This document shows, in pieces, positions 15,217 through 56,660 of a DNA stretch of 64,000 bases. How positions within the stretch are numbered: position 1 is the first letter of the stretch; every line of letters begins with the position of its first letter. The stretch is from an uncultured Gemmatimonadota bacterium (GTDB lineage: Bacteria; JAAXHH01). The notes beneath the pieces were generated by a model that did no database searches, had not been told where the DNA came from, and saw nothing but the letters and a program-made list of their open reading frames with translations. Both the position numbers and the translations under genes were made by a program. The stretch lies in NCBI GenBank assembly GCA_951812955.1, contig OX638340.1:2624001-2688000 (forward strand). The letters run 5' to 3'.

Positions 15217-16740
15217 ATGCCGTCTCTCCCGACAAATTTCGGAACCCTGGACTGGCTGATCGTCGCCGTATACATGGCAGCCACGGTGGGCGTAGGCCTG
15301 TACATGAACCGGTACATCCGGGACATGGGAGACTATATCGTGGCGGGCAGGTCGCTCAAGTCCCGCCTGGCCGTGGCGACCATGATCGGGAGCGAATTGG
15401 GCCTGGTGACGGTCATGTATTCGGCGCAGAAGGGCTTCACCGGCGGGTTTGCCGCCTTCCACATCGCGGTCATCGCCGGCGTGGTCACCTTCATCGTCGG
15501 CATGACCGGCTTCATCGTCGTGCCCCTACGCCGATTGGGCGTAATGACGATCCCGGAGTTCTACGAGAAGCGCTTCAGCCGGGGCGTGCGGATATTCGGC
15601 GGCCTGCTCCTCGCCTTTGCCGGCATCCTGAACATGGGGCTCTTCCTCAAAGCCGGCGCCCTGTTCGTGACGGGCCTCACGGGCCTGACCGATCCCAATG
15701 CCGTCGCCGTGGTGATGTCCGTCATGCTGGCGCTGGTCATCGCCTACACCATCATGGGCGGCATGGTGTCGGTGGTGATCACCGATTACATCCAGTTCGT
15801 GGTCCTCTCCTTCGGCATGATCCTGACCTGCGGTATGGCCGTCTACGCACTCGGCTGGCCGACCATCGTGGAAACCGTGGCGGCCGTCCACGGCGAGTCC
15901 GGGTTCAATCCCCTGATCGAGGGCAGTGGCTTCGGACCCTCCTATATCATGTGGATGATCTTCACGGCGGGACTCGTGTCCTGCGCCGTGTGGCAGACCT
16001 CGGTCATGCGCGCCTGCGCCGCCGAAAGCGTAGAAGTGGTGCGCAGGTTGTACAAGTGGTCCTCCATCGGCTTCCTGATCCGGTTCATGATCCCCCAGTT
16101 CCTCGGCATCTGCGCGCTCACGTATTTCTTCAACGAACCCGGGTTCCGTGCCTTCTTCTTCGATGAAAACGGATCACCCACCGCTGACACCACCATGACG
16201 CTGCAGGCCATGCCGCTCTTCCTGTCCCAGATCCTGCCCACCGGTATCATCGGCCTCGTCGGTGCGGGACTCCTCGCCGCCTTCATGTCGACCCACGACA
16301 GCTACCTGCTCTGCTGGGCGTCGGTGCTGACTCACGACGTCGTGGCGCCGGCCACCAATGAGCGATTGACCACCCGGTGGCGTCTGATGCTGTCGCGCAT
16401 CTTCATCCTGATAATCGGTCTGTTTCTGCTCGTATGGGGACTCTGGTACGACCTGGGGCAGGACCTGTGGGACTACATGGCCGTGAGCGGCGCCATCTAC
16501 TTCACCGGTGCCTTCACGCTGCTGCTGGCGGGACTGTACTGGAAGCGCGCGAGTACCGTGGGCGCCTACCTGGCGCTCATCGCGGGCATCGGCGCCGTGA
16601 CGGGCCTGGGACCCGTAAACAAGGCGCTGGGCCTGGGCATGTACAGGAGCGACGAGATTGGGCTGTCCGTAACCGCGCTGGCCCTGGTCCTCATGTTCGC
16701 CGGATCGCTGCTGTTCCCGGACCGGAAGGAGGAAGTGTGA
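15217..16740 (+). CDS. Sodium:solute symporter (SSS) family transporter
   Basis: 507 aa, about 13 predicted TM segments, SSS-like pattern; start 1 nt after purB stop. Confidence 0.8.
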   Translation: MPSLPTNFGTLDWLIVAVYMAATVGVGLYMNRYIRDMGDYIVAGRSLKSRLAVATMIGSELGLVTVMYSAQKGFTGGFAAFHIAVIAGVVTFIVGMTGFIVVPLRRLGVMTIPEFYEKRFSRGVRIFGGLLLAFAGILNMGLFLKAGALFVTGLTGLTDPNAVAVVMSVMLALVIAYTIMGGMVSVVITDYIQFVVLSFGMILTCGMAVYALGWPTIVETVAAVHGESGFNPLIEGSGFGPSYIMWMIFTAGLVSCAVWQTSVMRACAAESVEVVRRLYKWSSIGFLIRFMIPQFLGICALTYFFNEPGFRAFFFDENGSPTADTTMTLQAMPLFLSQILPTGIIGLVGAGLLAAFMSTHDSYLLCWASVLTHDVVAPATNERLTTRWRLMLSRIFILIIGLFLLVWGLWYDLGQDLWDYMAVSGAIYFTGAFTLLLAGLYWKRASTVGAYLALIAGIGAVTGLGPVNKALGLGMYRSDEIGLSVTALALVLMFAGSLLFPDRKEEV

Positions 16741-16883
16741 TGGAATTCTGGAGCACGCTCTGGACCGTGGTCTTCGTCCTGTGCCTGTTGATTTTTGCCG
16801 GCGTAGCTGTCTACGTCGGTGTAGGAGCGATCGGCGATATCAGGGCGTTGTTTAAGAGGATGGAGAGGCGGGGACCGAATTAA
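16740..16883 (+). CDS. Small (47-aa) single-pass membrane protein translationally coupled to the SSS transporter
   Basis: ATG overlaps TGA of the SSS gene (TGATG); MEFWSTLWTVVFVLCLLIFAGVAVYVGVGAIGDIRALFKRMERRGPN is one hydrophobic helix plus basic tail. Confidence 0.45.
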   Translation: MEFWSTLWTVVFVLCLLIFAGVAVYVGVGAIGDIRALFKRMERRGPN

Positions 16884-16893
16884 TGGTAGTGTA

Positions 16894-17115
16894 TCAGTTT
16901 GAATCCGGCAGGGTCTTCCCTCTGTAGATGGCCAACCATTTGGCGTGAATAGCCTCCCAGTATTCGATGTCCCTGTCGATCTCGTCATCGACTGTTGTTC
17001 CCGTCCAGGGCGTTTCTCTGAGCGGCCTCAGCTTGTGCCATTCAATAAGAAACATCTGGTGTCTGGCATTCATCTTTGACGCCCAGTTAATGCGTCGTGT
17101 ATCTTGCACAGACAT
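16894..17115 (-). CDS. Hypothetical protein (island)
   Basis: 73-aa ORF, no recognised domain. Confidence 0.3.
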   Translation of the reverse strand: MSVQDTRRINWASKMNARHQMFLIEWHKLRPLRETPWTGTTVDDEIDRDIEYWEAIHAKWLAIYRGKTLPDSN

Positions 17116-17319
17116 AACCTTCTCCTTTTCGTGGGAGATCAGTGTTCGGCGGGCGCAAACGCCGTAGATGTACGAATGCCCTTACCCTGTTGCCGAAGGA
17201 CCTCGTTTCAAACTTCTGAGTACAAGAAAACCCTGTCGGCCTTACTGGTCAATCGGGTTTTTGTTTCATTGCATCTCTTAAGTTGAGTCACCTTAGTCTG
17301 ACGGATCTGCCATCGCCAC

Positions 17320-17529
17320 CTAAAATCGTGTTAGAGTGTCTCCAATTCCTCTAGCAATTTCTCTTGCCTCATCATCGTCAAATTCAATCCTGAAATCTTC
17401 AAGGCCTCTATTCGTTTTCTCGATGAGCTTGTCGCGTAGATCTTTTTCATGGAAATACCCTTTTAACAGTTGAGTTAAAAGGTGTTCGATGAACAGGAAT
17501 CTTTTGTAGAATGCCCTTACATCAGTCAA
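17320..17529 (-). CDS. Hypothetical protein (island); TTG start preceded by a 10-codon upstream ORF with strong SD
   Basis: 69-aa ORF; upstream AAGGAG-ATG mini-ORF ends in TTGA overlapping the TTG start. Confidence 0.35.
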   Translation of the reverse strand: MTDVRAFYKRFLFIEHLLTQLLKGYFHEKDLRDKLIEKTNRGLEDFRIEFDDDEAREIARGIGDTLTRF

Positions 17530-17578
17530 TGGGGTGAATCAGGTTGAAACAATTTCATCTTTTTTACTCCTTCTACGT

Positions 17579-17938
17579 TCACGATCCCTCTCGGCGCAGG
17601 GTTTCGTAATCCCTGGCCCTGTCGCCTATCTCTAACTCGGCCAGCGTGTCGTCGATTCCCGCCTGGTAGGCCTCTCCTACCTGCGAATTGAGCGACTTGA
17701 CCTCCGCTTCCAACTCATCGACTCTGTTTTGTAGTTTCTTTGACGGATCAGGTGTGTACTCTTCCCCAAACAGACGGCTGATAACCTCTTCGAAAGGACT
17801 GGTTGCCGGTTGAGTGACTGCAGGCGGAACATATCCTAAAGCAGCTCGTAATGCGCCCCCGCCTTGGATACCACCGCTGATTCGCTTTAATTTTCTTCTT
17901 GAATCATCAGCTGGTTGATTTTGTTTATTCAAAGGCAT
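17579..17938 (-). CDS. Hypothetical coiled-coil protein (island)
   Basis: 119 aa, ATG with AGGAGA SD 6 nt upstream; Gly-rich then heptad-like region. Confidence 0.5.
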   Translation of the reverse strand: MPLNKQNQPADDSRRKLKRISGGIQGGGALRAALGYVPPAVTQPATSPFEEVISRLFGEEYTPDPSKKLQNRVDELEAEVKSLNSQVGEAYQAGIDDTLAELEIGDRARDYETLRREGS

Positions 17939-18120
17939 GGCCTTTCTCCTTTCTAGGTGATGCCATTAACAGTTCGGCCGTTGCCACCGCCGGATGAAAT
18001 ACAAAGAGACCCATACAGATCTCCCACTCTGAGGTCTTGCTGAAAGCCTTCTTTCAAGTTAGCCCGGTCGACTTATGCGGTCATCCGGGTTTCCTGTATT
18101 GCCTGTCCTACCGATCAGTT

Positions 18121-18357
18121 CTAGGCGAAGATGATTTCTCTCACTACTCTCTCCGCGATAGCGTACGACAGACGCGATTCAACGTAGATAAAGAACCAAC
18201 CCTCATTGAAAACGATACGATCTACTTTCCGTTCCTCCCCTTCTTCAGCATGGATATCTCCCACGCTGACACTACGCCGGGCGGTAAGGAGTCCTATTCG
18301 AGATTGATCTGCCGACGGGTCTAATTCCAACTTCAAAGACGCGATGTTTCCTAGCAT
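18121..18357 (-). CDS. Hypothetical protein (island)
   Basis: 78 aa; ATG preceded by GGAGG; preferred over overlapping + strand ORF 18037..18324. Confidence 0.45.
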   Translation of the reverse strand: MLGNIASLKLELDPSADQSRIGLLTARRSVSVGDIHAEEGEERKVDRIVFNEGWFFIYVESRLSYAIAERVVREIIFA

Positions 18358-18385
18358 ACCATCCTCCGAAAAGCATGAGTTGACC

Positions 18386-18407
18386 GGCCCCGCCGCGCGG
18401 CGGGGCC
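18386..18407. repeat. Perfect 22-nt GC palindrome GGCCCCGCCGCGCGGCGGGGCC
   Basis: Self-complementary as read; lies just upstream of the minus-strand gene start 18357. Confidence 0.6.
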
Positions 18408-18577
18408 GTGATATACGGACCGTCTATCTGACTCGGATCCGTCGTGTACGAATCGTGGTCCTTACCGTGCAGGTACGGGTGACCTTTACACGGACCGGGA
18501 CGCGTCTCGTACGTACAGGACTCCTTCGAATCCTGGGCATAGTACGACCCTCCATTTTAAACAGGGCCACTTTTTTG

Positions 18578-18606
18578 TTGATTTCCACACGAGGGAGGGT
18601 TATAAT
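18578..18606 (+). promoter_or_regulatory. Predicted sigma70-type promoter (-35 TTGATT, 17-nt spacer, -10 TATAAT)
   Basis: Exact -10 consensus and 17-nt spacing read directly; no + strand ORF for about 450 nt downstream. Confidence 0.4.
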
Positions 18607-18821
18607 ACGGAGCGACCCTCAGAAAGCGCGCCCTGTTGGTCAATCACCTGTGGCCCGGAGTTCCCTATACTTCGGGCCACTTCTTTATAACGGTGTAATA
18701 TACCTTACGCGGCTTCGTTCGTCAACCTGTTTTGCGCATCATATTCTATCGTTTTCTTCCTGCTCCGCCGATCACCGCAACATGTTGTGTGCTACACATT
18801 TATTGACCTAATAACGGGTGT

Positions 18822-18914
18822 TTAGTACGTCGATAACATGCTCTTGCCGGAATCGGCTTTCTGGAGAACCTGGAGCTTGAACTCACGGAAGAACTGACGG
18901 CGTTTCAGGGACAT
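18822..18914 (-). pseudogene. IS3-family transposase OrfA N-terminal remnant (30 codons then stop)
   Basis: MSLKRRQFFREFKLQVLQKADSGKSMLSTY* resembles IS3/IS911 OrfA N-terminus (…RRxFSxEFKLxAVxLV…GxSV). Confidence 0.35.
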
Positions 18915-19069
18915 GGGGTGTCTCCTCGTTCAGAAGGAAGCTTAACTCTGTGTCCCGTTCAACGGTGCAGTACATCATTCCTACCTAACCCCGCTTTGTT
19001 GTGACGTATACTACCGTGTACAAGCTCCGCAAAATTTGTTATGTACGTCGTGTGTAGGAGATTTCAACT

Positions 19070-19483
19070 ATGGAACAAATCGTTCCCCTATTTCTGAAAT
19101 ACGAATGGTGGCAAATAGTTGCGATTTTCCTCGCCTTGAGTGCGCCGGTCGCTGTTTACTGTATTTTTAAAAACTTCAACCTAACAGAATGGCGCAAAGC
19201 TCGAGACGAAAGGCACAGGGAACGAATGCAGTCCTGCTGTCCCCACGCTGAACGTGTATTGCAAGAAAACGGTGTAGTTTATTTCAAACCACTTATAAAC
19301 TCGTCCGTAAAAACTCGCGAAGGAGTCTGTTCCGAATGTGGAAAATCCTTTCTCCACGGCAGAACTGCCGTACTTGACACTGCAGTCCATTACGAAATGC
19401 ATATCGAAACATATCAAGAACGCGCAAAGGAATACAACACACTCGCCAAAAAATACGGTAAACGACTCCTGAACGTTAAGTAA
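19070..19483 (+). CDS. Hypothetical membrane-anchored Cys-rich (zinc-ribbon-like) protein
   Basis: N-terminal TM helix; CCPH…(39 aa)…CSECGKSF… Cys pairs. Confidence 0.45.
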   Translation: MEQIVPLFLKYEWWQIVAIFLALSAPVAVYCIFKNFNLTEWRKARDERHRERMQSCCPHAERVLQENGVVYFKPLINSSVKTREGVCSECGKSFLHGRTAVLDTAVHYEMHIETYQERAKEYNTLAKKYGKRLLNVK

Positions 19484-19740
19484 ACCTGGCCTCTGTTTTG
19501 TCCCACATTCGACAATGTCTACCCTTTTCACTTTACATTCCAAAAAAGCGCCTGACCGATAACAGTAAAGTGTGTATACTTTCCGCAGACATTCCAATCG
19601 ACTTACTTACATTAACCTTATAGATTTATATATAGTTATGTGACGTAATTCGGAACAGTTAAGCAGGTATATACAAACTTGCTTTTTAAACTGCCCGAAG
19701 ATTCTACAAGTCGTTAGACGGAATTCAAAGTAAAGGTATC

Positions 19741-22422
19741 ATGAGTCAAGACAAAATCACATTGGCCCAACTAGAGTCCTTCCTATTTAAAGCAGCCGAC
19801 ATCCTGCGCGGGAAGATGGATGCATCCGAATTTAAGGAGTTCATTTTCGGCATGCTGTTCCTGAAACGGCTCTCCGATGAGTTTGATCAAACGCGCGAAC
19901 AGTTACGCGAAAGGGTCTACGCCCACCTAGAACCCGATACAAAGGCAGGAGTGCTTGAGGATAAAACGTCCTATGGAGAGACATTTTACGTACCCGTTCG
20001 TGCACGTTGGCATGAGGAGTGGAAGGATGAGAATGGCGACTTAGTTCCAGCACTCAAGGATCTTAAGAGCGACATTGGCAATATGTTGAATAAAGCTATT
20101 GCTGCGGTCGAGGATGAGAACGACTCACTAGCAGGGGTGCTGAAGAACAACATTGACTTTAATGCTGTTAAGGGTAAGACGAAGATATCTGATCAAAGGT
20201 GGAAGGACTTACTCGATCATTTCAACCAACCTCAGTTTGTCCTGGTTAACGACAATTTTGAGTTCCCCGATCTACTCGGTGCAGCTTATGAATACCTGAT
20301 CAAGTATTTCGCGGACAGCGCAGGTAAAAAGGGAGGCGAGTTTTACACCCCCGCGGAGGTAGTGCGTCTGTTGGTTCAGCTAACCAAACCAACTGCCGGG
20401 AATGAAATCTATGACCCAGCTGTTGGTTCTGGTGGCTTTCTGATTCAGGCACACCAGTATGTCGAAGAGCAGGGTGAGGATCCCAACAATCTGGCCCTAT
20501 ATGGTCAGGATTCCAACGGCACCACCTGGTCGATCTGTAACATGAACATGATTCTTCACAACATCACGCGTTTCACGATTGAGAACGACGACACTTTGGA
20601 AAATCCTCTGATATTGCAGAATGGTCAGGTTCGAAAGTTCGACCGCGTGCTGGCCAATCCCCCATTTTCGCAGAACTACACCCGCGCCAACGTGAAATTT
20701 ACCAATCGTTTCCGAGAGTGGTGCCCAGAGACAGGCAAGAAAGCTGATCTAATGTTCGTCCAGCACATGTTGGCAAGTCTCAAAGGCGACGGCCACATGG
20801 CTACCATTATGCCTCACGGTGTCCTCTTTCGCGGAGGCAAGGAGAAGCTGATTCGGGAACTGTTGATAGACGACGATGTTATCGAGGCAATCATCAGTTT
20901 GCCTCCAGGGTTATTTTACGGGACTGGCATACCGGCTTGCGTGCTCGTTTGCGATAAGAACAAGCCCGACGAGTTGCGCGACAAAGTCTTATTCATCAAC
21001 GCAGACCGCGAGTATGCCGAAGGAAAGAATCAAAACAAGCTGCGGCCGGAGGATGTGGAGAAAATCGACTTTGTGTTCTCCAACAAACTCGAGATCCCCC
21101 AATATAGCCGGCTCGTACATAAATCAGAGATCGCCGACAAGCACGACTACAATCTGAACATTCGACGCTATGTAGATAATACCCCTAAGCCAGAGCCGGA
21201 GGACGTGCAAGCCCATCTAATCGGCGGCATCCCTGAATCTGAAGTTGCAGCGAAAGAAGATAGTTTCTCTAAGTTTGGCTTTCAGGCCAAAACGCTATTC
21301 TGCCCTGATCGACCAGGCTACCTCGCATTCAGAGAGTCGATTACAGGCAGATCGGTCATCAAAGAGATCATTGAAGGGGATCCATCGATCGTGCAGACGT
21401 TGAAAATACATCGCAATGCACTCAAGCAATGGTGGAACGTAGCCCGTGATGAATTCGCCGAGCTTGAGCATGGCAATCACAGCGGTCGAAAGATGCCCAA
21501 AGTGCGTCATGAGCTTATGAAGACACTCAAGGGTAAGCTCGTTCCGCTATGTGTACTCGACGAGTTCAAGAGTGCGGGCGTTTTCGTCAACTGGTGGCAG
21601 CAAATTCGCTATGACCTGAAGACCATTGTTTCAACAGGATGGCATCATACACTCATCCCAAAAGAATATCTGACCGCCGCGTTTTTCCAGAGTGATGCAG
21701 ATGCTATTGAGGAACTGGAGACCCGTATAGGTGAACTACAGGCAGAATTTGCTGAAGCCGTGGAAACTGCTCAAGAGGTCGCCGCGTATGAGCCGGAAGA
21801 AGATAAAACGGTAACGGCATCGGCCATTAAGACAGCTCTAACGGACCTCATTAATGACCTAAAGGATAGCACTGGCGAGTCGGCCAAGCGAGAGCTTAAC
21901 ATACTCAAGGCACAGGATGTTGCTATAAAGGACATAGAAAAGAAGATCAGGAGCAGCAAAATTTCATTAAAGAATAAGACCATGGAATTGGAAGACAAAC
22001 TCCAACTCAAGCGACTCGGAGGAGATGGATTCAAGAGCGAAAATCAGAGACTCATAGAGGAAGACGAAAGCCAGATTGCATTACTGAATCCAAGCAACAA
22101 AACTGAAAATACAAAGATCAATGCGTTAAATAAAGATATCGCTGTACTTGAGGAACGTATCGCCAAGACCCACGCGGTACTGGAGGCACTCGGTGGTTCA
22201 CTAACCGATGACGAAGCCAAGCATCTCATCCTCAAGAAGCTCTACGACATCGTGAGCACTGAATTCGAACGCTACCTCAATGCAGAGATACGTCACCTAA
22301 TTTCAGGTGTCGAAAAACTGTGGAGTAAATACGCCAGCAGCAGCCAGAAGATAGAAAGCGACCGAGAAATCACGCTCGGCCAGCTCAATGCATTTCTAAG
22401 TAGATTGGGATATATGGGATGA
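19741..22422 (+). CDS. hsdM: Type I restriction-modification system methyltransferase subunit HsdM (N6-adenine), with about 350-aa C-terminal coiled-coil extension
   Basis: HsdM N-terminal domain [24 protein letters not shown]; NPPF catalytic motif ([10 protein letters not shown]); AdoMet motif [10 protein letters not shown]. Confidence 0.9.
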
Positions 22423-23618
22423 GTAAGAAATTTGAAACGCTATCGAAAATCGGTCTTCTTCGAATGGGAGAAACGATTATCGCAAAGGACTGTTCTGGAG
22501 ATGGTTTGCCAATCTATTCCGCAAATAAAGGGAACAAGCCATGGGCGCATTCCGACCACTTTAGATGCAAAAATGAAAGAGGCTGTATTGTCATAGGGGC
22601 AAGAGGAACTATTGGCTATCCACGTCTTCCGAAAGATGAACTGTTTGGCGCAACTCAAACCACAATCGTATTTTCTCCTGACAAAGATCATTTTATCCCG
22701 GAATTCCTGCACTACAGCCTGCAACAAGTTGATTTTGAGAGTCTCGGAGCACAGCAGGCAATTCCTATGCTCACTGTTTCCAATTTAGAGAACCTAACGA
22801 TTCGTTCGTTCAAAAAACCTGAACAATCTAAGATCGCCAAGATTCTTACAACGGTCGATCAGGCGATTGAACAGACCGAAGCGTTGATAGCAAAACAGCA
22901 ACGCACCAAGACCGGTCTGATGCAAGACCTGCTCACACGCGGTATCGACGAAGATGGAAACCTTCGCTCCGAAGACACCCATGAATTTAAAGATTCACCG
23001 TTTGGGCGTATTCCGGTGGAGTGGGTAGTGAAAGAACTAAGTGATTTTTGCGACGTAACATCCAGTAAACGCATATACTTACATGATTACAATACAGAAG
23101 GTATTCCGTTCTATCGTTCAAAAGAAATCATCGAACTGGTAAGGGAAGGAAAAACTCTTGGTGGATTATATATCACGAAAAGTAAGTATCTTGCAATAAA
23201 GCGCATCTTTGGAACTCCTAATAAGGGCGACGTACTCATTAGCTCAGTAGGAACTCTTGGAATTTGCTATTTGGTCAGGGACAACGATCGATTCTATTTT
23301 AAAGATGGAAATCTCATCTGGCTCCGTCGATTTCAAAAACATATGAATCGGATATTTTTAATAGAATTACTACCAAGGATGATCAATACCCAATTTGATG
23401 ATCTTGTGATTGGGACAAGTCAAAAGGCATTCACGATTGAGAAGCTTAAGCGTCTCAAGCTTTATTTCCCATCGACCGAGGAGCAGAATAGACTAGCGGT
23501 TTCTGTTCAACAGTTCCAAGCTAAAATCGATTGCGAGATACAAAGTCTGCAAAAACTCCGATTCCTCAAGACCGCTTTAATGCATGACCTCCTCACTGGC
23601 AAGGTTTCTGTCAGGTAG
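22419..23618 (+). CDS. hsdS: Type I R-M specificity subunit HsdS
   Basis: 399 aa with two target-recognition-domain halves and conserved central/terminal helices; ATGA overlap with hsdM. Confidence 0.8.
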
Positions 23619-23644
23619 TTAATCACAGAAGCGGAGAGCAGTAT

Positions 23645-26600
23645 ATGAGTAAAAACGAGTCTCCAGCGCACATTAAACTCGACGAAAGGAATCACGTTGA
23701 GAAGCCAATTCTTGATCAGCTTGAGGGTATGGGCTGGGAGATTATCGACCTCGACAGTCAGCAACTCCCTGTAGATACTCACCGCGAGACTTTATTGGAA
23801 GTTGTCATGTTCCCAGTGTTGCGTGAGCAACTCAAGGTCATCAATCCCTGGATAGAGAACGATCAGGTTGAAGAGGTCGTCAAGCAACTTTCTGCGAGTT
23901 TCCCAGGCACGGGGCTGACTGAGAGTAACAAGCATGTGCTTCATCTGCTGCTCGGAAACACAATCGTCAGTGAAAATCGGCAATCCGGTGAGAATAGCCC
24001 GACTGTGCGCTATATCGACTTCAAGAACCTGGACAACAACCGATTCATTGCAGTTTGCCAATTCAAAGTCCGCATCTTGGGCACGGAGAAACACATCATC
24101 CCGGATATCGTGTTATTCGTAAATGGTCTACCGGTGGTTGTAGTCGAGTGCAAGTCCCCTAAAGTAAAGGATGCCATCCCAGAGGCCATCGACCAGATAC
24201 TACGCTACAGCGAGCAGCGGGGTGACAAAGGCGAGGGAAGTGCTCCACTCTTTTATTACAACCAGTTTGTAGTCGCCACATGTCGCCAGGAGGCCAAGTT
24301 TGGGACGATAACCACGCATATTGAAAAACATTTTTTTCGTTGGGCTGATCCTTATCCAAAAACGCTCAATGATCTCGAGCATGGCTCTGGTACTCCAAAC
24401 GATCAGCAGCGCCTGGTCGCTGGGATGATGGCTAAAGATAACCTGCTCGATCTCATTCGCACCTTCACTCTGTTTTCAACCAACGATAAAGGTCAGACCA
24501 TTAAGATCGTCGGACGATATCAGCAGTACCGCGCGGTCAAAATCGCTGTTAAGCGTCTCATGGAAGGCGCGACCCCACGGGAACGCAGCGGCATCATCTG
24601 GCACACTCAGGGATCCGGTAAATCGCTGACCATGATGTTTATGGTGCGTGAGATGTACCAACAACCGAAACTGGCAAGCTGGAAAGTGGTATTCGTCACT
24701 GATCGGACACAACTCGAAAATCAGTTGAGCGAGACCAGCCAAAGCATTGGGTTCACAGTGAAGACGGCGAACAAGATCAGCGAGTTGAAGGAACTCCTGA
24801 GCACTGATACGTCGGATTTGGTCATGGGTATGATCCACAAATTTCAAGAAGACGATCTTGAAGAGACCTTCCCACAGCTAAACGACAGCCCCAATATACT
24901 GGTCATGACTGATGAAGCTCACCGTTCTCAATACAAGCTACTTGGTGCGAATCTTGACAGAGCTATACCCAATGCTGCAAAAATCGGCTATACAGGCACT
25001 CCGATTGATAAGACAGAGCAAGTCTTTGGCGACTACATCGACAAATATACCATGCGGCAGTCCATAGACGATGGTGTGACTTTGGAGATAGTCTATGAAG
25101 GTCGCACTCACAACGCGGAAGTCTCTGACCAGGAAGGTATGGATGAGGCGTTCACTGATGTGTTCAGCGATTACAACATTGAGGAAAGACTTGCAATCCT
25201 TGGCTACGGTACCCGAAGAGCCTATCTGGAAGCAGAAACAACGATTGAAGCCAAAGCCAAGGATATGATTAATCACTACCTGAAGCATGTATATCCGAAT
25301 GGCTACAAGGCACAGATTGTAGCCACTTCTCGGGAGGCTGCTGTCCGCTACAAGAAGCACGTAGACAATACCCTTGAAGCTTCAATTGCTGATCTGGAAA
25401 AATCAAATCCAAATGGTCTTGATTTGGATCTGTTAAAGTCTATTGAGACAGATGTAGTGATTTCTGGGGAAGGAAACGATTTAAGTCATCTAAAAACATA
25501 CTCAAACCCGACCAAGCACGAGAGTAGCATCAAAAGTTTCAAGATGGATTTCGGTGGTGAAGTTGACGGTCTTCATGGAAACATGGGAATACTTATTGTC
25601 AATAACATGCTTATCACGGGATTCGACGCCCCTGTAGAACAGGTTATGTATTTGGACAAAGTCATTTTTGGCCACAACTTGTTGCAGGCCATCGCAAGGG
25701 TAAATCGTGTTGCAGGTGAGGCCAAGGGTAAAGGCTTTGTAATCGATTATGTTGGGATTGGTCATAACCTAAAGAGGGCAATTGATCTTTATGATAAGAA
25801 AGAAAAGAACGAAATCATCGATACACTTGTTTTTCCTGAAGAAGCATTGCGTGAATTGGAGGATAGCCATGCCGAGATCTTAGCTTTTCGGGAAGCGAAC
25901 GGCTTAGAGGAATTGGCAGACTTGGATGCATATTACGATGTGTTTTATGATGAGGCACTACGTTTTGAATACATGCAGTCTTTCAAGAAGTTCACTAGGA
26001 ATCTGAATTCAGTGTTCCCAGCTAGGCAGGCTTTGGAATACATGGACGAATATAATGTATACGCTGAAATCAACACACTTGCTGGAAAGCATTTTAGAGA
26101 TGAACGATTAAGTATGAAGGGAATCCCACCGAAGCTCCTCGCAATCACAGACAAGTACTTGGTGTCAGAAGGTATACATCAGCAGGTCAAACCAGTCTCA
26201 ATTTTGGACGATTCATTCCAAGAATCTGTTAACAGCCATACACGTACAAAGACAAAAGCAGCTGAAATCGAGCATGCTATTCGACACCACCTAGATGTAG
26301 AATTGAATGACGATCCAGATTTGCAGGCATCCTTTGCAGAAGCGCTTGCTAAAATACTGCAAGAGTTCAAGGACAATTGGAGCAAGGTTTACGAGGAATT
26401 GGAGAAGTTACGACAGCGTATCATCAACGTTAGTAAAGAGCCCACATATGGGCTTAGTCGAAAAAAACAGATGCCATTCTTTCGATGTTACAAAAGGGAG
26501 ATGTTTGGCGAAAATGAGCTTAATGAAGATGAGATTTCACTTCTTGTCGACTTAACTAAGCAGGTATTTTCTGTGATAGAACTTGAGCTGAAGTTGATTG

Positions 26601-26773
26601 GTTTTTGGGAAAGCATTTCTGCACGCAACAAACTAAGGGCTGAAATTCAGAAAAAACTGCTTGGATCTACTTACGCGGCATTACCACACATAGTAGAGAA
26701 AAAAGACAGCATTATCAGCCGCACGATGGAGATCGCGGAGAAGAACAACGATATCATACTTTATGCGGAATAA
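23645..26773 (+). CDS. hsdR: Type I restriction enzyme R subunit HsdR (EcoKI-like endonuclease/helicase)
   Basis: 1042 aa; SF2 helicase motifs (TQGSGKSLTM Walker A, MTDEAHRSQY DEAH box); HsdR N-terminal nuclease region (VVVECKSPK). Confidence 0.9.
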   Translation: MSKNESPAHIKLDERNHVEKPILDQLEGMGWEIIDLDSQQLPVDTHRETLLEVVMFPVLREQLKVINPWIENDQVEEVVKQLSASFPGTGLTESNKHVLHLLLGNTIVSENRQSGENSPTVRYIDFKNLDNNRFIAVCQFKVRILGTEKHIIPDIVLFVNGLPVVVVECKSPKVKDAIPEAIDQILRYSEQRGDKGEGSAPLFYYNQFVVATCRQEAKFGTITTHIEKHFFRWADPYPKTLNDLEHGSGTPNDQQRLVAGMMAKDNLLDLIRTFTLFSTNDKGQTIKIVGRYQQYRAVKIAVKRLMEGATPRERSGIIWHTQGSGKSLTMMFMVREMYQQPKLASWKVVFVTDRTQLENQLSETSQSIGFTVKTANKISELKELLSTDTSDLVMGMIHKFQEDDLEETFPQLNDSPNILVMTDEAHRSQYKLLGANLDRAIPNAAKIGYTGTPIDKTEQVFGDYIDKYTMRQSIDDGVTLEIVYEGRTHNAEVSDQEGMDEAFTDVFSDYNIEERLAILGYGTRRAYLEAETTIEAKAKDMINHYLKHVYPNGYKAQIVATSREAAVRYKKHVDNTLEASIADLEKSNPNGLDLDLLKSIETDVVISGEGNDLSHLKTYSNPTKHESSIKSFKMDFGGEVDGLHGNMGILIVNNMLITGFDAPVEQVMYLDKVIFGHNLLQAIARVNRVAGEAKGKGFVIDYVGIGHNLKRAIDLYDKKEKNEIIDTLVFPEEALRELEDSHAEILAFREANGLEELADLDAYYDVFYDEALRFEYMQSFKKFTRNLNSVFPARQALEYMDEYNVYAEINTLAGKHFRDERLSMKGIPPKLLAITDKYLVSEGIHQQVKPVSILDDSFQESVNSHTRTKTKAAEIEHAIRHHLDVELNDDPDLQASFAEALAKILQEFKDNWSKVYEELEKLRQRIINVSKEPTYGLSRKKQMPFFRCYKREMFGENELNEDEISLLVDLTKQVFSVIELELKLIGFWESISARNKLRAEIQKKLLGSTYAALPHIVEKKDSIISRTMEIAEKNNDIILYAE

Positions 26774-26776
26774 CTG

Positions 26777-27460
26777 ATGAACGTGGACTATACAGTAAAG
26801 CGATCGCATAAGCGAAAGAAGCTGACAATTACAGTTGAGCGTGACCGGCAGGTTGTGATCTCCGCTCCCGAGTCAACTTCTGAGGAGGCAATTAGAAGAT
26901 ACATCGAATCGAAACGCCAGTGGATTTACGAGAAGTTGAATCACCTGCAGAAATACGAAACTCAACCTCATCCGCCTGGTAAGGAATTAGTAAATGGTGA
27001 ATCTACGCTTTATCTTGGCTCCGAGTATCAGATCCAGATTATCACTAGCAGTACGACTGAGATACGATTAGAGCAACGTTTTCTAGTTCCGAATTCTTTG
27101 GCGGGAGAAAGAAGGAAGGTATTTCAAAAATGGTATGTCGACCGGGCTAAAGAGAACATATTACCAAAAGTAAAATCGTTCGCCAGTATGCTCGGAGTGG
27201 AGTTTGCCAATGCGAAGATCATGGATAGTCGCTACCGTTGGGGCTCTTGTACAATCAAAGACAACATCAACTTAAACTGGCGTTTAATTAAAGCACCTAT
27301 GTTCGTAATCGACTATGTAGTAGTTCACGAACTCGCACATCTGATGGAGGCAAACCACACCTCTCGATTCTGGAATATCGTTAGGACGCACGCACCATTG
27401 ATGGAAAAGGCTCAAAGATGGCTTAAAGAAAATGGCCAGATACTCGAACAGGATATCTAG
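26777..27460 (+). CDS. YgjP/DUF45-family metal-dependent hydrolase (HExxH, WLM/SprT-like)
   Basis: HELAH zinc motif in YVVVHELAHLMEANH; 3 nt after hsdR stop; family frequently linked to hsdR. Confidence 0.75.
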   Translation: MNVDYTVKRSHKRKKLTITVERDRQVVISAPESTSEEAIRRYIESKRQWIYEKLNHLQKYETQPHPPGKELVNGESTLYLGSEYQIQIITSSTTEIRLEQRFLVPNSLAGERRKVFQKWYVDRAKENILPKVKSFASMLGVEFANAKIMDSRYRWGSCTIKDNINLNWRLIKAPMFVIDYVVVHELAHLMEANHTSRFWNIVRTHAPLMEKAQRWLKENGQILEQDI

Positions 27461-27525
27461 CGCGCAGTTCGAATAAACCAGTATCAGGTATTAACTGAAT
27501 CGTCGATTCATCCGCTTTTTTTAGA

Positions 27526-27921
27526 TTATCCGCATCCGCACACCAGCGCCTTACCCTCGGTGGCCTGCAGCCCCTCGGTTTCGTAGCCGTCCCGCATCCA
27601 CCAGTCCAGCCCGCCAATTAGTTCCTTTACGTTGAAACCCAACCTCGCCATGTTGAGCGCGCCCTTGGTCGACGCGTTGCAACCGATCCCATCGCAATAG
27701 GTTACGTACAGTGATTTTTTGTTCAGGTCGGCCGTGGAATCGGGATCCATGGTCCGGTGGGGAATGTTAACGGAGCCGGGGATATGCCGTTCGGTGTACG
27801 CTTCGGCGGACCGCGTGTCCACTACGACGATGTCATTGCCCAGGGTGATGGATTCCCACAGGTCGTAGGCATCGATCTCGTATTTCAGCTTACTCTCGTA
27901 GTGGGTAATCTGGTCTTTCAT
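27526..27921 (-). CDS. Single-domain rhodanese-like sulfurtransferase
   Basis: Active-site Cys loop CDGIGCNAS; ATG 27921 with GAGG SD; visibly GC-richer than its island neighbours. Confidence 0.65.
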   Translation of the reverse strand: MKDQITHYESKLKYEIDAYDLWESITLGNDIVVVDTRSAEAYTERHIPGSVNIPHRTMDPDSTADLNKKSLYVTYCDGIGCNASTKGALNMARLGFNVKELIGGLDWWMRDGYETEGLQATEGKALVCGCG

Positions 27922-28271
27922 TGTGCCTCTAACTGGTATGAGCCAAAGTGGGTGGTTCTGCGACACATCTATCTTAGGGAATACAAGAAGCTACCCAGCT
28001 CATTTCTAGTATAACAAATTAGCGTGCTGGATAGTGTATTCGTCTCAATTCTTCTTTAGGTTTATAACGCGGTTGGAATTTCTATACACGGCCATCAAGC
28101 CGAAAAATCCAGTTTATATTAGGAGTTGTGTCTGAAACTTCGGACCTATGGCGGGCATTACTCGCGAGGATTTGTAAATCTTTATATAAAACTAAACTCA
28201 AGTTACTCGCCCAATCTATCGATTAATGGTTTCATCTTAGCAGTTGATGTTTAATCTGAAATGAATGGATA

Positions 28272-29018
28272 TCAATGGACAAGAGCTTGAAACTCTTTCC
28301 CATTCATAGGCTTGTGTTTCGTCCAGCTTCCGCTCATTTCAACCAGGATTCGCTGCATCCATGAGTATGAATCAGAGGTGTAGATTTTCAGCACTCTAGC
28401 TTTGTATTCGGGATGTTCTTTCATAGCTTTAGTTAAATCATAAACCAAGTAACGAGGTGACCAACCAATCATGTGATAATCTAAAGTCTGGATTTGAACT
28501 GCCACCTTTGATACAGGATTGGTTAGTTCCAAGGTTACATACAACGGTTCATCTTCCTCTAATTTACTTAATCGGTTCTTTGCCGGTTTATTGATATGTC
28601 GAGTTCCGTGAAGAAAAAACCGGCACGTAAAGCTACCATCCGCTTCCTTGCGGATTTTCGGAAACACCTCATATGAATCAGTTACACGATTACCTCCATT
28701 AATGGATAGGATCTCAATTGGATCTGCTTCGTCACAGAGATCAAACCCCTTAAGGTAGTCCTCAAATTCTGGCCTCGATCGATTCAGAATTCGATTCTTA
28801 AATAACGGAAACAACTCCTTTGATGTATATTCATGGTCGAAACTAGGGAATTCAACCAGTGGAGCGAATCGTGCTTTTTCCATTGCCCGTTTTGCGCCGT
28901 AGATATAACGAAACTTAAAGAAAGGTTCGTTGATATCGGCATCAAGTCGACCTACGGGATACCATTCTCGGGTTGTTACCTGATCTTGCCAAGCAAGAAA
29001 AAGTGTTCTGAAGTTCAC
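28272..29018 (-). CDS. Uncharacterised 248-aa partner of the HipA-like kinase; N-terminal region weakly HipA-N/HipS-like
   Basis: GTG start overlaps kinase stop (GTGA); N-terminal …REWYPVGRLDADINEPFFKFRYIYGA…FPLFKNRIL… loosely resembles the HipA N-subdomain (V-G-L, F-x-Y, …F.NLLPE…) pattern. Confidence 0.45.
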   Translation of the reverse strand: MNFRTLFLAWQDQVTTREWYPVGRLDADINEPFFKFRYIYGAKRAMEKARFAPLVEFPSFDHEYTSKELFPLFKNRILNRSRPEFEDYLKGFDLCDEADPIEILSINGGNRVTDSYEVFPKIRKEADGSFTCRFFLHGTRHINKPAKNRLSKLEEDEPLYVTLELTNPVSKVAVQIQTLDYHMIGWSPRYLVYDLTKAMKEHPEYKARVLKIYTSDSYSWMQRILVEMSGSWTKHKPMNGKEFQALVH

Positions 29019-29905
29019 GAATCTATCTCCAATAGTTTTTGACGGTTATATAACATTAAATTCATTGCGAATTGTCGGGCGTGTATGCTCATCCAATCAT
29101 CTGGAATACGATTAACGATTTCCTCAAGGCTGCTTATGTCAAGTTGGTAGAGTCTTTGCAAAACGGAACTAAAAGACTCCGGTAGTTCATTGAATGTAGT
29201 GCGCACGACGCCAAGGGGGCTTAGCCCTCTAGTGTCTTCGCTAGACCTGTAAATCGGGCTTCGACCTTTTTCGGCATATTGTCCAACTCTATCCTCATCT
29301 AACAATCGAATACGCCTGTCATCATCGATTTCTCTTCCCAGAGACGATGCGTGGTCATATGACGGTGCCATAGTTTTCGACACCATAGAAAAATCCATCA
29401 AAACTCCCCAGTTTTCGTGATGTCGATCAGTGTTTCCAATAAACGCATCTAAGATTATGTATTCACAGAAAGTTTGTTTTGCACTATCGGCTTTTTCTTG
29501 TTCAAATACTGTCTCAAGAACGCTCCAGATATTAAAGATGGTATGGTCTGATTGCTTTTGTGTCTTTTCTGGCTCATATTCATTAAATATAAAACTCAGA
29601 AGTTGGTTACCATGAATCAGTTCATGGTAACGATCGGTAAATGACTTGGTAGCTGTTCCTTTGGTTTGCCTGAAAACGGCTAATTCGACGATTGCATGTG
29701 GGATATTGAGTAATTCTGCAACTTCAGATGCAACCTTTTCAGCCCAATGTTCGCCCCTACTCTCTCGATGGTATTTAAAAAGCCATAGTTCATCTTCAGA
29801 TTCGGATCGATTGAACCAGAATTTAGGTTTGCTTCCCATTTCTTCCTGAAGATACTGGTCTTCCTTAATTTCCTCGATCTGATAGTCATTCAACTTCCGC
29901 CCCAT
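29015..29905 (-). CDS. HipA-C-domain (HipT-like) Ser/Thr kinase, stand-alone kinase core
   Basis: Gly-rich loop MGSKPKFWF (cf. HipA GAQEKTAL), catalytic ILDAFIGNTDRHHENWGVL (cf. HipA ATDGHAKNFS), APSYDHASS (cf. HipA TPFYD); 296 aa, lacks HipA N-subdomain. Confidence 0.75.
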   Translation of the reverse strand: MGRKLNDYQIEEIKEDQYLQEEMGSKPKFWFNRSESEDELWLFKYHRESRGEHWAEKVASEVAELLNIPHAIVELAVFRQTKGTATKSFTDRYHELIHGNQLLSFIFNEYEPEKTQKQSDHTIFNIWSVLETVFEQEKADSAKQTFCEYIILDAFIGNTDRHHENWGVLMDFSMVSKTMAPSYDHASSLGREIDDDRRIRLLDEDRVGQYAEKGRSPIYRSSEDTRGLSPLGVVRTTFNELPESFSSVLQRLYQLDISSLEEIVNRIPDDWMSIHARQFAMNLMLYNRQKLLEIDS

Positions 29906-30794
29906 TTTTCTCGGTCTATGTCATTGGGCCTTAACATCCTGTTTTGCAATATCCAATGCGATGTTTGTTTTTTACGGTCCATCCCCAGTCACTAATGCGT
30001 CCACTTATGGCCTTTGGACAGATAAATTGCATGTCCTCGGTTTCCTCGGCTCGGTAGGAATCCTGCCGACTTGGACCACACGTCATTTCACGTCTGAGTG
30101 GCGGTTTTCACGACATGGCCCTCCAGTATGTGTCATTTCCTTATTTAACGCTATTAAACCAAAAAGTACCAGATGAACTGCAGGTGCTCCTCCAACTTGT
30201 CTGAGCACGTTCAATAGATCTCGATCATAATTTCGACTAAGTCTACGACAGTCATCCGTATTTCGCAATCCTTTCTCAAGCCGTAGAGCGGTGAAGTTAC
30301 GATCAGTTTTGAAACTGTCGTCTGGGAAAATTGCTATATATGTAAAATGTCTTCGTAGACTAGGTTTAGCGAAAAACTAATTACATCACGACTAGACTTG
30401 TCTGTGGATTTGCCATCATAGTCTGGCAATTTTCACCAATGTCTACCCAGGTAGACACATACTCTGGGTGACTCCTTTCGGGATGAAGGCGGACAGGTCC
30501 GCCCTGTCCGACCGAACATAAATCTTTGTTCGGTATTGCAATTATACGGTTTTCCGGGGGCCATAGCAATACTAAATTGAACAGGTACTATTCAGATGCG
30601 ATTTCTAATTGATACACATCCGCGTGTTGATCAGTACAGGTCAATATACTGGTCAATACCGTCTTGCTGTCTTGACCGTACAGCACTTCTTTTTCTAAGC
30701 ATTCCCACGCTTACTATAGAAAGTGTTTCAGTTTCTTTGGCGAACCATTTCCGTCAAATCGGTGATAATTCACCTCCATCGACAACAGGGGTAA

Positions 30795-32453
30795 TCTCAC
30801 ATTTCTGCTAATTACCTAAGCCTTAAAACCACCATCCAGTGGATCGGCCTGATCGCCGGTCCAGTCGTGGCGATCCTGCTCTACAGCCAGTTGCCCCATG
30901 CGTACATGAGCGGCACGGGCGAGGTGGTGGCGTTCTCGAACGCCGGCCGTGCGACATTGGCCCTGGCGGTGTGGATGGCGATCTGGTGGATGACAGAGGC
31001 CGTCGAGCTTTACGCCACGGCATTGTTGCCCCTGGTCGCCCTTCCGTTGGCCGGTGCGTCACCGGTGCGGGAAGCGGCCGCTCCCTACGCACACGAGTTG
31101 ATCTTCCTCTTCATGGGCGGTTTTCTCATCGCCCTGGCCATGCAGCGATGGGGGCTCCACCGACGCATGGCGTTCAAGGCCCTGCGTGCGGCCGGCGACC
31201 ACCCGGCGGGCATCGTGGCGTGCTTCATGGGCGTGACGGCCTTTTTCAGCATGTGGGTGTCCAACACGGCCACCGCGGTCATGATGCTCCCCATTGCCCT
31301 CAGCATCATCGCCTTGGTGGAGCAGGTGGAACCCGGTAGCGTGGCAGGCGGCGCTGGAAACGGCAGCACAGATAACAATGGTGCAGGAAGCGGAAATTCT
31401 GCCGCCGGAAACGGTGGCCCCGGAAGCGGCGTAGCAGTAGACGGTGACACGGGCAACGGCGGCCCCGGAAACAAAGGGCCTGAAACAAAGACGCGGCCCC
31501 ATTTCGCCCTGTGCCTGCTTCTGGGCATCGCCTACGCCGCATCCATCGGCGGGATCGGTACGATCATCGGCACGCCGCCCAACGTATTCCTCGCGTCCTT
31601 CATCCAGTCCAACCTGGGCCAGGAGATCAGCTTCGTCCGGTGGATGGGCGTGGGACTTCCCCTGGTGGCCGTTTTCCTGCCGCTGACGTGGCTGATGCTG
31701 ACCCGAGTCCTTTATCCCCTTCGGGCCGTGCGCATCGAGGGAAGCCGGGAGGTGACGGATAAGGCCTACCGGGAACTGGGCTCCATGTCGCGGGGGGAGA
31801 GGGTCGTGCTGGCGGTGTTCCTCCTCGCCGCCGTATCCTGGATTGCCCGTCCGTTGCTGGTCCAGGTCCAGATAGGTGACCTGACCCCGCTGGCCGGTCT
31901 GTCCGATCCGGTCATCGCCATGGTTGCGGCGCTGGCCCTCTTCGTCGTGCCGGTGGACGTAAAACGGCGAATCTTCGTGATGAACTGGGAAACGGCCGTG
32001 AAGCTTCCCTGGGGGATCCTGCTGCTCTTTGGAGGTGGGCTCAGCCTGGCCGCGGCCATCCGGGCCAATGCCGTGGGGGAATACATCGGGCACCAACTGG
32101 CCTTCCTGTCCGGCATCCCCACGCTGCTGCTCGTTATGGCCGTCATCGCGCTGGTGATCTTCCTGACCGAACTGACCAGCAACACGGCCACCACGGCCAC
32201 GTTCATCCCCATCCTGGCCGCCCTGGCGCCGGTTTTCGACCTGCACCCCTTCATGCTGATCGTGCCGGCCGCCATCGCCGCCAGCTGTGCCTTCATGCTG
32301 CCGGTCGCCACCCCGCCCAACGCCATCATCTTCGGTTCCGGTCACGTCACGATCCAGCAGATGATCCGCGCGGGGTTCTGGCTGAATCTGACCGGCGTCG
32401 TACTGATAACCTTGCTCGTATACACCGTGATGATGCGGATGCTCGGGGTCTGA
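30795..32453 (+). CDS. DASS (SLC13-like) divalent anion:Na+ symporter family transporter, 5' end removed at the island junction (no canonical start before GTG 30867)
   Basis: VSNTATAVMMLP DASS signature; in-frame open from 30795 with homology starting …IQWIGLIAGPVVAILLY (TM1) immediately at the GC shift; G/N-rich low-complexity loop. Confidence 0.7.
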   Translation, partial: SHISANYLSLKTTIQWIGLIAGPVVAILLYSQLPHAYMSGTGEVVAFSNAGRATLALAVWMAIWWMTEAVELYATALLPLVALPLAGASPVREAAAPYAHELIFLFMGGFLIALAMQRWGLHRRMAFKALRAAGDHPAGIVACFMGVTAFFSMWVSNTATAVMMLPIALSIIALVEQVEPGSVAGGAGNGSTDNNGAGSGNSAAGNGGPGSGVAVDGDTGNGGPGNKGPETKTRPHFALCLLLGIAYAASIGGIGTIIGTPPNVFLASFIQSNLGQEISFVRWMGVGLPLVAVFLPLTWLMLTRVLYPLRAVRIEGSREVTDKAYRELGSMSRGERVVLAVFLLAAVSWIARPLLVQVQIGDLTPLAGLSDPVIAMVAALALFVVPVDVKRRIFVMNWETAVKLPWGILLLFGGGLSLAAAIRANAVGEYIGHQLAFLSGIPTLLLVMAVIALVIFLTELTSNTATTATFIPILAALAPVFDLHPFMLIVPAAIAASCAFMLPVATPPNAIIFGSGHVTIQQMIRAGFWLNLTGVVLITLLVYTVMMRMLGV

Positions 32454-35898: not shown

Positions 35899-36203
35899 TG
35901 TGTGGACTCCCTTTACCGATAAGGTCCTTCAGAGCCTTCGTTCCGGTTCCAGTTCTTTTCACATAACATAACGCTGACATCAAGTATACATTATGCATCT
36001 CAAAGTGGGTATCAATACCGAACACTCAGGTCCTGCAACAGCGTGTTATTTCCGATGGCGCGTGCCGTTGCCATCCGTTGCCATTGGTACGCTGTAAGAT
36101 GTCGCTTTAAGTTGCCGTAGTAGGACCGCAATAGGTATGCATACGCGCCTCATGTCCATTCTCCGCATACGGATCCAGAAAGCCCTGCCAGCAAGGTCCT
36201 GAG

Positions 36204-56650: not shown

Positions 56651-56660
56651 GAGGAATATC

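Follow-up and report, generated by a model that had tools for sequence, protein, structure and literature searches.

The interval between a sodium:solute symporter (SSS) gene and a DASS-family anion symporter gene in an uncultured Gemmatimonadota bacterium (GenBank assembly GCA_951812955.1, contig OX638340.1, positions 2,624,001 to 2,688,000) is, with a probability of roughly 0.8, an accessory and defence hotspot flanked by core genes, where modules arrive horizontally and are reshuffled by recombination in the flanks. The whole stretch of 64,000 nucleotides is called the window below, and positions refer to it unless a relative is named. The interval carries a Type I restriction-modification (RM) cassette (hsdM-hsdS-hsdR-ygjP), a HipA-like gene pair (hipI-hipN), a GC-rich rhodanese gene, several small genes and a stub of orfA of an IS3-family insertion sequence (IS). 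An initial annotation, made from the DNA letters alone, had listed these genes correctly and had placed the segment between the two transporter genes, as found here. It described the segment as a single insert of 13.9 kb; the comparison with related genomes does not support this and resolves it into at least three modules that assort independently, together with a resident rhodanese gene.

The comparison set consisted of 18 related genomes, all uncultured metagenome-assembled genomes labelled Gemmatimonadota, Latescibacterota or 'bacterium'. A scan with the SSS protein gave 13 relatives in which the protein is 91-99% identical and occupies the same position, and protein look-ups gave 5 further loci; individual loci are denoted here by L numbers. 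The isolate names APA, IRC and Plut suggest that these organisms come from sponge or coral holobionts. In the window and in the 16 relatives having both flanks, the SSS gene and a small open reading frame (ORF) stand on one side and the DASS gene on the other. Constant boundaries with varying content between them are the pattern of a hotspot and not of one island in a fixed site.

The simplest fillings are almost empty. Adjacency of the two transporter genes, which the initial annotation had proposed to look for, is seen in L012 and L004, with only 54 and 195 bp between SSS and DASS, respectively. In L003, L006 and L010, and in L005 as far as the contig end, the slot holds the rhodanese gene alone, its stop codon lying 5-18 bp after the stop of the small ORF and the gene standing ca. 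270 bp before DASS. Other relatives carry different genes. The slot is occupied by a Fic/Doc gene in L008 and L009, by a Fic/Doc gene, a leucine-rich-repeat (LRR) protein and a 1184-aa protein without known family in L021, and by a four-gene cluster with a 240-aa ORF in L007. Between rhodanese and DASS, single ORFs without known family are found in L002 (12509-13423, 304 aa) and L011 (12214-13170, 318 aa), and L161 has there a 384-aa ORF (18265-19419) that matches DUF6575. L001, with 95% DNA identity in the SSS gene, harbors a 1630-aa LRR/Big_2/M66 protein, IS fragments and 38 bp of the rhodanese gene. Across the genomes the cargo thus comprises Type I RM, hipIN, Fic/Doc, Panacea-like/PDC-M19A-like, DUF6575, LRR and unknown genes.

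The four-gene cluster of L007 (11833-14794, minus strand) encodes proteins of 197, 205, 140 and 455 amino acids. For the first, Panacea-like and PDC-M19A-like matches are weak (2.4e-14), and the other three match no family. The cluster may be a toxin-antitoxin or defence module of an unrecognised kind.

Base composition sets the interval in the window sharply apart from its surroundings. The AT-rich stretch runs from 16884 to ca. 30815, with GC contents falling to 0.42-0.48 from ca. 0.62. In 1-kb windows the GC content is 0.60-0.65 until ca. 16.5 kb, 0.40-0.53 across 16.9-30.8 kb and 0.58-0.65 past 31 kb; by segment it is 0.475 (16884-19740), 0.457 (19741-27525) and 0.418 (27922-30660). The tetranucleotide correlation with the core is -0.34 to 0.07 for these segments, as compared to 0.96-0.98 for core segments, and the GC content at third codon positions (GC3) is 0.37-0.55 in the genes of the interval as compared to 0.83-0.88 in the flanking core genes. 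Homology to the closest relative, L001, ends at 16873 and restarts at 30814. These limits agree with the composition shifts that had been noted at about 16884 and 30795, which are confirmed, and the composition of the segment is indeed foreign to the host.

Parts of this DNA recur separately in the relatives, which supports the mosaic origin that had been proposed for it. The segment at the left end (module 1) is present alone in L169, the RM cassette is present without hipIN in L161, and hipIN is found in L165. Where modules recur in relatives that are not sisters, their junctions are identical. The distribution of the cargo conflicts with the core-gene trees, in which the partner is L001 for the window, L002 for L165 and L011 for L161. 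All three partners are without the cassette, and the carriers belong to non-sister lineages. The same genes in the same place were encountered in just 3-4 of the ca. 18 genomes, again non-sister ones, which indicates that the segment was acquired and is patchy rather than ancestral. The conflict extends to single genes, as the hsdR and rhodanese sequences of the window are nearer to those of L161 than to those of L165, the reverse of the core-gene trees.

The most direct view of exchange is offered by L161 and L011, a near-conspecific pair. On the left, their sequences agree at 97-100% in 100-bp bins as far as the stop codon of the small ORF; on the right, the identity is 97.4% from ca. 60 bp inside DASS onward. 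The interiors are completely different: L161 has the cassette, a frameshifted rhodanese gene and the DUF6575 gene, L011 has no cassette, a rhodanese gene of 84% identity to that of L161, and another ORF. The entire interval has been replaced, the breakpoints lying in the conserved flanks, and this points to homologous recombination in the flanks and not to site-specific integration.

According to the explanation that we prefer, foreign DNA would enter the clade by horizontal transfer, the RM cassette would have inserted once, next to the rhodanese gene, and the modules would since have been exchanged between related species, with homologous recombination taking place in the conserved flanks and IS elements creating internal junctions. 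The donor DNA for such recombination could be delivered by transformation, transduction or another route.

The strongest competitor, though an improbable one, is that the segment is ancestral and vertically inherited, was lost independently elsewhere, and owes its odd composition to the genes themselves. Between carriers the synonymous divergence (dS) of hsdR, ygjP and hipIN is 0.37-0.55, which matches the 0.40-0.56 of the core genes, and the carriers have identical junctions, both as vertical descent would predict. Against such descent, the carriers are spread over non-sister lineages, all of them with a close relative that lacks the segment, and the empty sites are tight, with the 5-18 bp between the small-ORF and rhodanese stops showing no scars of deletion. 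Moreover, the cassette slot of L011 is empty and its rhodanese gene has diverged from that of L161 well beyond the 97-99% identity of their flanks, the affinities of the window's hsdR and rhodanese genes run opposite to the core-gene trees, and the same cassette circulates in unrelated genomes.

Another alternative, in line with the initial annotation, is a single island of ca. 13.9 kb that had integrated site-specifically, as an integrative element or the remnant of a prophage, and had later lost its integrase. This appears very unlikely. The sharp change of composition at both ends is in its favour, as are the IS3 remnant and the small genes associated with mobile genetic elements (MGE) inside the segment, and a relative of the cassette in an unrelated genome, L163, adjoins a tyrosine integrase gene. 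However, the marks of such an element are missing. In agreement with the initial annotation, domain profile searches found no recombinase or integrase domain in any ORF of the segment and a tRNA/tmRNA search found none in the whole 64-kb window, and an Rfam search matched no family; the att-like direct repeats proposed as a check were not found at the borders, as a repeat search of 16500-31300 returned only short chance pairs. Furthermore, the parts of the supposed island occur separately in L169 and L161, a rhodanese gene of host-like composition lies in its middle and also in otherwise empty slots, and L161 and L011 differ by a swap of the entire interval at its core flanks. The view of the island as old or degraded finds no support either, because neither the RM genes nor hipIN are truncated and their ratios of nonsynonymous to synonymous divergence (dN/dS) are 0.07-0.16. 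Nor is the lack of an integrase a sign of decay, as the locus behaves as a hotspot exchanged through homologous recombination in its flanks.

That low-GC DNA of another organism was joined into the contig during assembly or binning is scarcely credible: the source is a metagenome-assembled genome and the contrast in composition is extreme, but the core/cassette, cassette/rhodanese, rhodanese/hipIN and hipIN/DASS junctions are seen across four independent assemblies (L161, L165, L169 and L170) from different samples.

Several observations weigh against the hotspot explanation or limit it. A scan of metagenomes gave no conspecific genomes, so that polymorphism of the locus within the species was not seen. 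The dS of the cassette equals that of the core genes, which taken alone would also fit long vertical residence with many losses. The gene trees were obtained by neighbour-joining on short alignments, and the discordance of the rhodanese gene rests on 396 nucleotides. Because LRR proteins and unrecognised genes are common in the slots of the relatives, and much of that cargo is not recognisably defensive, the label 'defence hotspot' may be too narrow. As to the function of the kinase pair discussed below, the data point only weakly to a HipS-like domain in the HipN protein of the window.

The metagenome scan gave one close relative, L081 (LXNI01005224.1), whose contig breaks off precisely where the SSS gene stops, as would be expected of an assembly at a polymorphic locus. 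Exact look-ups of the SSS and HsdM proteins of the window returned no record.

The central part of the segment is the four-gene Type I RM cassette (module 2b, 19738-27460, plus strand), which was assigned by Pfam, PADLOC and NCBIfam domains. It starts with hsdM (19741-22422, plus strand), encoding a protein of 893 amino acids with HsdM_N (PF12161, 1.8e-29) and N6_Mtase (PF02384, 9.4e-104) domains and a TIGR00497 score of 257.3 bits, above the cut-off of 242.75 bits. This is followed by hsdS (22419-23618, plus strand), with Methylase_S matches in two stretches, and by hsdR (23645-26773, plus strand), with HSDR_N, SWI2_SNF2/ResIII, T1R_D3-like and T1RH-like_C domains and a PADLOC REase_I match of 8.8e-126. 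A gene for a YgjP-like metallopeptidase (26777-27460, plus strand) closes the cassette. The domain sets found by profile searches for hsdM, hsdS and hsdR are complete for Type I restriction-modification, and the dN/dS values of the window against L161 and L165 are 0.12-0.14 for hsdM, 0.10-0.13 for hsdR and 0.13-0.16 for ygjP. All large genes of the segment are under purifying selection, full length, and of equal length in all carriers. To judge from its sequence, the cassette is an intact and putatively active Type I system, in which HsdM2S would methylate the host DNA and HsdR would be expected to cut unmethylated incoming DNA. It matches the known kind of Type I system in which HsdM is long and a YgjP-like (PF01863) gene is linked to the RM genes, since it is complete, has ygjP right after hsdR, and differs in nothing essential. 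YgjP-like proteins (COG1451) are associated with Type I systems; a literature search for a link between YgjP/COG1451 and these systems yielded nothing useful and no supporting paper.

Upstream of hsdM lies an AT-rich region with one small gene (module 2a, 18975-19737, plus strand). The product of this gene, o137 (19070-19483, plus strand), is small and combines a membrane helix at its N-terminus with a Cys-rich ribbon motif; it gave no family match in Pfam, PADLOC or NCBIfam, and the gene has a dN/dS of 0.32 against L165. Module 2 starts immediately outside the end of the IS3 remnant, as L170 is collinear with the window over 18979-26628 at 88.7% identity. L165 is collinear over 19054-29954, where 19054 corresponds to the end of the fetched L165 locus. 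The DNA of 18979-27525 as a whole recurs in L170, L165 and L161.

Similar cassettes exist far from this locus. More than 120 relatives have HsdM proteins of 75-88% identity, and in three unrelated genomes (L162-L164) the cassette has the same limits, 19738-27459, in surroundings with a GC content of 0.47-0.50 and with integrase, RadC, PIN/Phd, SLFN_AlbA_2 or IS genes as neighbours. The hsdR and ygjP genes of the copies inside the clade (window, L161, L165 and L170) form one group, with 87-90% identity among themselves and 72-80% identity to the outside copies. In addition, the spacer between the stop codons of ygjP and the rhodanese gene (27461-27525, 65 bp), which forms the junction of cassette and locus, aligns base for base with L161, lies inside an unbroken alignment (high-scoring segment pair) to L165, and is absent from the cassettes in unrelated contexts. 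The single group and the common spacer in the window, L161 and L165 indicate that the cassette entered the locus once. The methylation and specificity genes behave differently: the hsdM copies inside and outside the clade are all ca. 85-87% identical, and the target-recognition domains of hsdS differ between all copies, with only 22821-23035 conserved. These patterns suggest extra swapping of the M and S genes.

Synonymous divergence is about as large in the AT-rich genes (dS 0.37-0.62) as in the flanking core genes, and yet the cassette has not drifted toward the GC content of its host. The GC3 of hsdR and ygjP is ca. 0.50 in all three in-clade copies, as compared to 0.59-0.63 in copies from contexts with a GC content of 0.48. 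An estimate of the equilibrium GC3 from outgroup-polarised third-position changes gave 0.41-0.46 for the segment and 0.61-0.82 for the core of the same genomes. A lower equilibrium in the segment is a tentative proposal, because parsimony underlies the estimate and AT sites are few in the core genes. The persistence of a low GC content in an island as diverged as the GC-rich core could be relevant to why accessory DNA remains rich in AT.

The rhodanese gene (27526-27921, minus strand; Pfam Rhodanese 5.6e-15, GC3 0.76) encodes 131 amino acids counted from M16, the true start as set by comparison with orthologues. Of the first 13 relatives, 9 have it in the SSS-DASS interval and L023 has a fragment; L161 and L165 have it there as well. 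Its occurrence in otherwise empty slots and its host-like composition mark it as a long-term resident of the variable locus. Host-like as its composition is, the gene can be dispensed with, as its repeated decay across the relatives shows: L161 (17840-18234) and L011 (11667-12078) have a frameshift in it, only a fragment is left in L023 (11718-11861) and only the 38-bp remnant in L001, and L004, L012 and L021 lack the gene altogether. The difference between the L161 and L011 genes inside near-identical flanks shows that rhodanese alleles move with the block. The idea that rhodanese is a fixed core gene that splits two independent slots was dropped, as its alleles travel with the block and the window allele groups with that of L161. 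In L001 (2100-2420 and 8609-8746) the rhodanese remnant runs directly into part of an IS256/Mutator transposase gene (Transposase_mut 1.3e-5), and the same IS3 remnant as in the window is present.

Beyond the rhodanese gene follows module 3 (ca. 27922-30660, minus strand), which consists of hipI, hipN and ca. 750 bp of upstream non-coding DNA and corresponds to the PADLOC candidate system PDC-M03. The kinase gene hipI (29015-29905, minus strand) encodes 296 amino acids with a HipA_C match of 8.6e-13 in Pfam and a full-length PDC-M03A match of 2.9e-87, and hipN (28272-29018, minus strand) encodes a HIRAN partner of 248 amino acids with a full-length PDC-M03B match of 2.7e-72; the coding regions overlap by 4 nucleotides. 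The hipIN family was described by Gerdes et al. 2021 (PMC8262856) as a short kinase of ca. 300 amino acids without the HipA N-subdomain 1, encoded upstream of and overlapping with the gene for a partner of ca. 250 amino acids that has a C-terminal HIRAN domain and a HipS-like N-terminal region. The gene pair in the window has this organization, with the HipS-like region as a tentative assignment. HipI possesses the HipA_C domain only, and the family profile matches the HipA-like kinase CtkA. The catalytic-loop and Mg-binding motifs are kept, with GNTDRHHENWG and DHASSLGRE invariant. The HIRAN score of HipN itself, 22.8 bits, is just below the cut-off of 24.7 bits, but all 11 of 11 family members have a HIRAN match and the family profile matches HLTF HIRAN structures at ca. 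3e-3. A HipS-like N-terminus is hinted at by Couple_hipA matches in 2 of 11 HipN family members (best 2.4e-6) and by a weak match of the family profile to HipS (7ab3/7ab4) at an E-value of 0.4. A single-sequence AlphaFold model of HipN was unusable (pLDDT 37.6).

Module 3 is 91% identical in DNA sequence to its counterpart in the same place in L165, with dN/dS values of 0.12 for hipI and 0.07 for hipN between the two. Most database relatives outside the clade are only ca. 50% identical to hipI-hipN. Among kinase homologues on viral contigs, the partner gene is located directly downstream in 64 of 64 cases, two of which are fused. The fused proteins (486-515 aa), which are prophage-borne and found on the viral contigs L228 and L230, combine kinase, HipS-like and HIRAN parts in the HipL architecture and thereby support a functional link between hipI and hipN.

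HipI is a predicted toxin kinase that would shut down translation, and HipN would restrain it by means of a putative HipS-like domain at its N-terminus. The HIRAN domain, plausibly a sensor of DNA ends, would release the kinase upon infection. That HipI-HipN is a genuine anti-phage abortive-infection system, in which HIRAN senses free 3' ends of DNA and the released kinase stops translation, we regard as possible but doubtful. These ends might stem from phage DNA, either injected or replicating, or from cleavage by the Type I system next door. If true, hipIN beside the RM cassette in two species would amount to a layered first- and second-line defence that is maintained as a long-lived exchangeable allele. 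HipAD, a different HipA-type system, has been validated as defence (PMC13092281); in the literature searched, no experimental test of the hipIN/PDC-M03 family was found. With its two-gene architecture conserved throughout the viral-contig homologues, hipIN is a lead for a candidate system.

The left end of the segment is formed by module 1 (16884-18974, minus strand), which consists of four orphan small genes, o73 (16894-17115), o69 (17320-17529), o119 (17579-17938) and o78 (18121-18357), all on the minus strand, and the IS3-family remnant. Strong Shine-Dalgarno sites had been noted for the small genes; o73, o119 and o137 have ribosome-binding sites of the AGGAG type, and copies of these genes are present in other genomes. 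The sequence 17040-18974 is 97.6% identical to L169, as compared to only 87-93% for the flanking core genes of the same pair, and in L169 a stretch of 1.2 kb of unrelated DNA separates it from DASS. Copies of o73 with at least 90% identity are located elsewhere beside a HicB-like gene and in MGE-like DNA; no relatives of o73 were found on viral contigs. For o119 just 5 matches exist among 1.84 billion representative proteins. A similarity between o73 and an L001 sequence proposed by MAFFT was discarded, as BLASTP gave no support and the L001 sequence is an IS256/Mutator transposase fragment.

The IS3 remnant (minus strand) begins at 18974, its terminal repeat end, with TGTACTGCACC; besides this single end, only 30 codons from the start of orfA (18914 to 18822) are left. 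A 5'-TG end is typical of IS3-family elements. The stub was not recognised directly by Pfam or by tblastn and blastn against plasmids; it was identified through a longer copy in L001, to which it is 92% identical in DNA and 81% in protein sequence and which matches HTH_Tnp_1 at 1.4e-13. The remnant is also found in L169, and in L001 it is located near DASS. The full set of IS3 features, OrfA with HTH_Tnp_1, OrfB with the DDE transposase and two terminal inverted repeats, is not present in the window, and the sequence is a remnant, not an element.

The two borders are formed by conserved genes. On the left, the SSS gene (15217-16740, plus strand; Pfam SSF 1.1e-31, GC3 0.88) is a core gene, and its stop codon is overlapped by an ORF for a membrane protein of 47 amino acids (16740-16883, plus strand) that is conserved in all relatives. 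This is the small ORF mentioned above. The left breakpoint lies in its last 2-3 codons, where homology to the relatives stops at 16868-16877. On the right, the DASS gene (conserved part 30822-32453, plus strand; Pfam Na_sulph_symp 1.3e-63, TIGR00785 271 bits) is preceded by a leader and promoter segment (30661-30821, plus strand), one of several alternative versions, which aligns with the intergenic region of the otherwise empty slot of L006 and shares with it a TTGAC...TAAGCA/TAGTAT element.

The initial annotation stated that the right border cuts into the DASS gene. This holds for the extreme 5' end only: conservation starts at 'LKTT' (30822), and the preceding codons and the start codon vary in every genome, so that the variable region extends into the DASS start everywhere. 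The remainder of the gene is intact and constrained (dN/dS 0.16). The opposite notion, that DASS is untouched by the variable region, had to be softened for the same reason, and also because the window has no canonical start there. After the TAA at 30792-94, no ATG, GTG or TTG occurs in 30792-30867 before the GTG at 30867, and the sole near-cognate start upstream of this GTG is ATT at 30801, with AGGGG 10 nucleotides upstream; the equivalent codon in L006 is ATC. The stretch LKTTIQWIGLIAGP is probably translated, since its differences from L006 are mostly synonymous.

The locus belongs to a known kind, the hotspot flanked by core genes, and lacks the features of site-specific integrative islands (integrase, tRNA/tmRNA target, att repeats). 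Similar to the immigration control region (ICR) of enterobacteria (yjiA-yjiN, 'hotspot 36'; PMC12707154), it is a variable interval between conserved anchors, with some empty sites and without a mobilising gene at the anchors, in which Type I hsdRMS and toxin-antitoxin modules replace one another. Cassette-like variation of the ICR is attributed to Sibley & Raleigh 2004, as cited in PMC12707154. The anchors, the host lineage and the cargo families of the SSS-DASS locus are different from those of the ICR. Unlike the ICR, it is exchanged between species-level lineages that are ca. 10-15% apart in DNA, and it also carries non-defence cargo (LRR proteins) and a resident rhodanese gene.

The cDHS1 and cDHS2 loci of Pseudomonas aeruginosa (PMC10250203) likewise have core-gene flanks and low-GC, highly variable cargo. 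In many of these sites no mobile gene is detected, transposases of the IS3 family are the most frequent of the mobile genes there, and transfer by recombination in the conserved flanks was proposed, not shown (PMC10250203). Their flanks include a tRNA or tmRNA gene, unlike those of the SSS-DASS locus, which is also much smaller (0.05-14 kb). A further difference is that a flank-to-flank swap is directly visible in L161 and L011. This swap between near-identical genomes represents the step that was only proposed in the Pseudomonas study.

These findings leave current concepts unchanged. They provide a small and clean example of a core-flanked hotspot in an uncultured clade, in which sites may be empty or filled with alternative cargo and non-sister species share identical junctions. 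The SSS-DASS interval could be mined as bait for unknown defence or symbiosis genes of this clade; several fillers are without known family.

Downstream of DASS, the window contains three paralogous genes for MacB/FtsX-type permeases (32495-34882, ca. 36200-38570 and ca. 40090-42000). Cross-matches between them are at 67-70% DNA identity, and the relatives differ in how many of these genes they have and in what order. Two more AT-rich islets are found further on, at 47400-49250 (GC 0.47) and 55600-56950 (GC 0.43), and may be further small variable loci. The first harbors a gene for an EcKL/APH-like kinase (47684-48781, minus strand), the second a gene for an SDH/ClpP-like serine protease (55762-56346, plus strand) together with an ORF of 129 amino acids.

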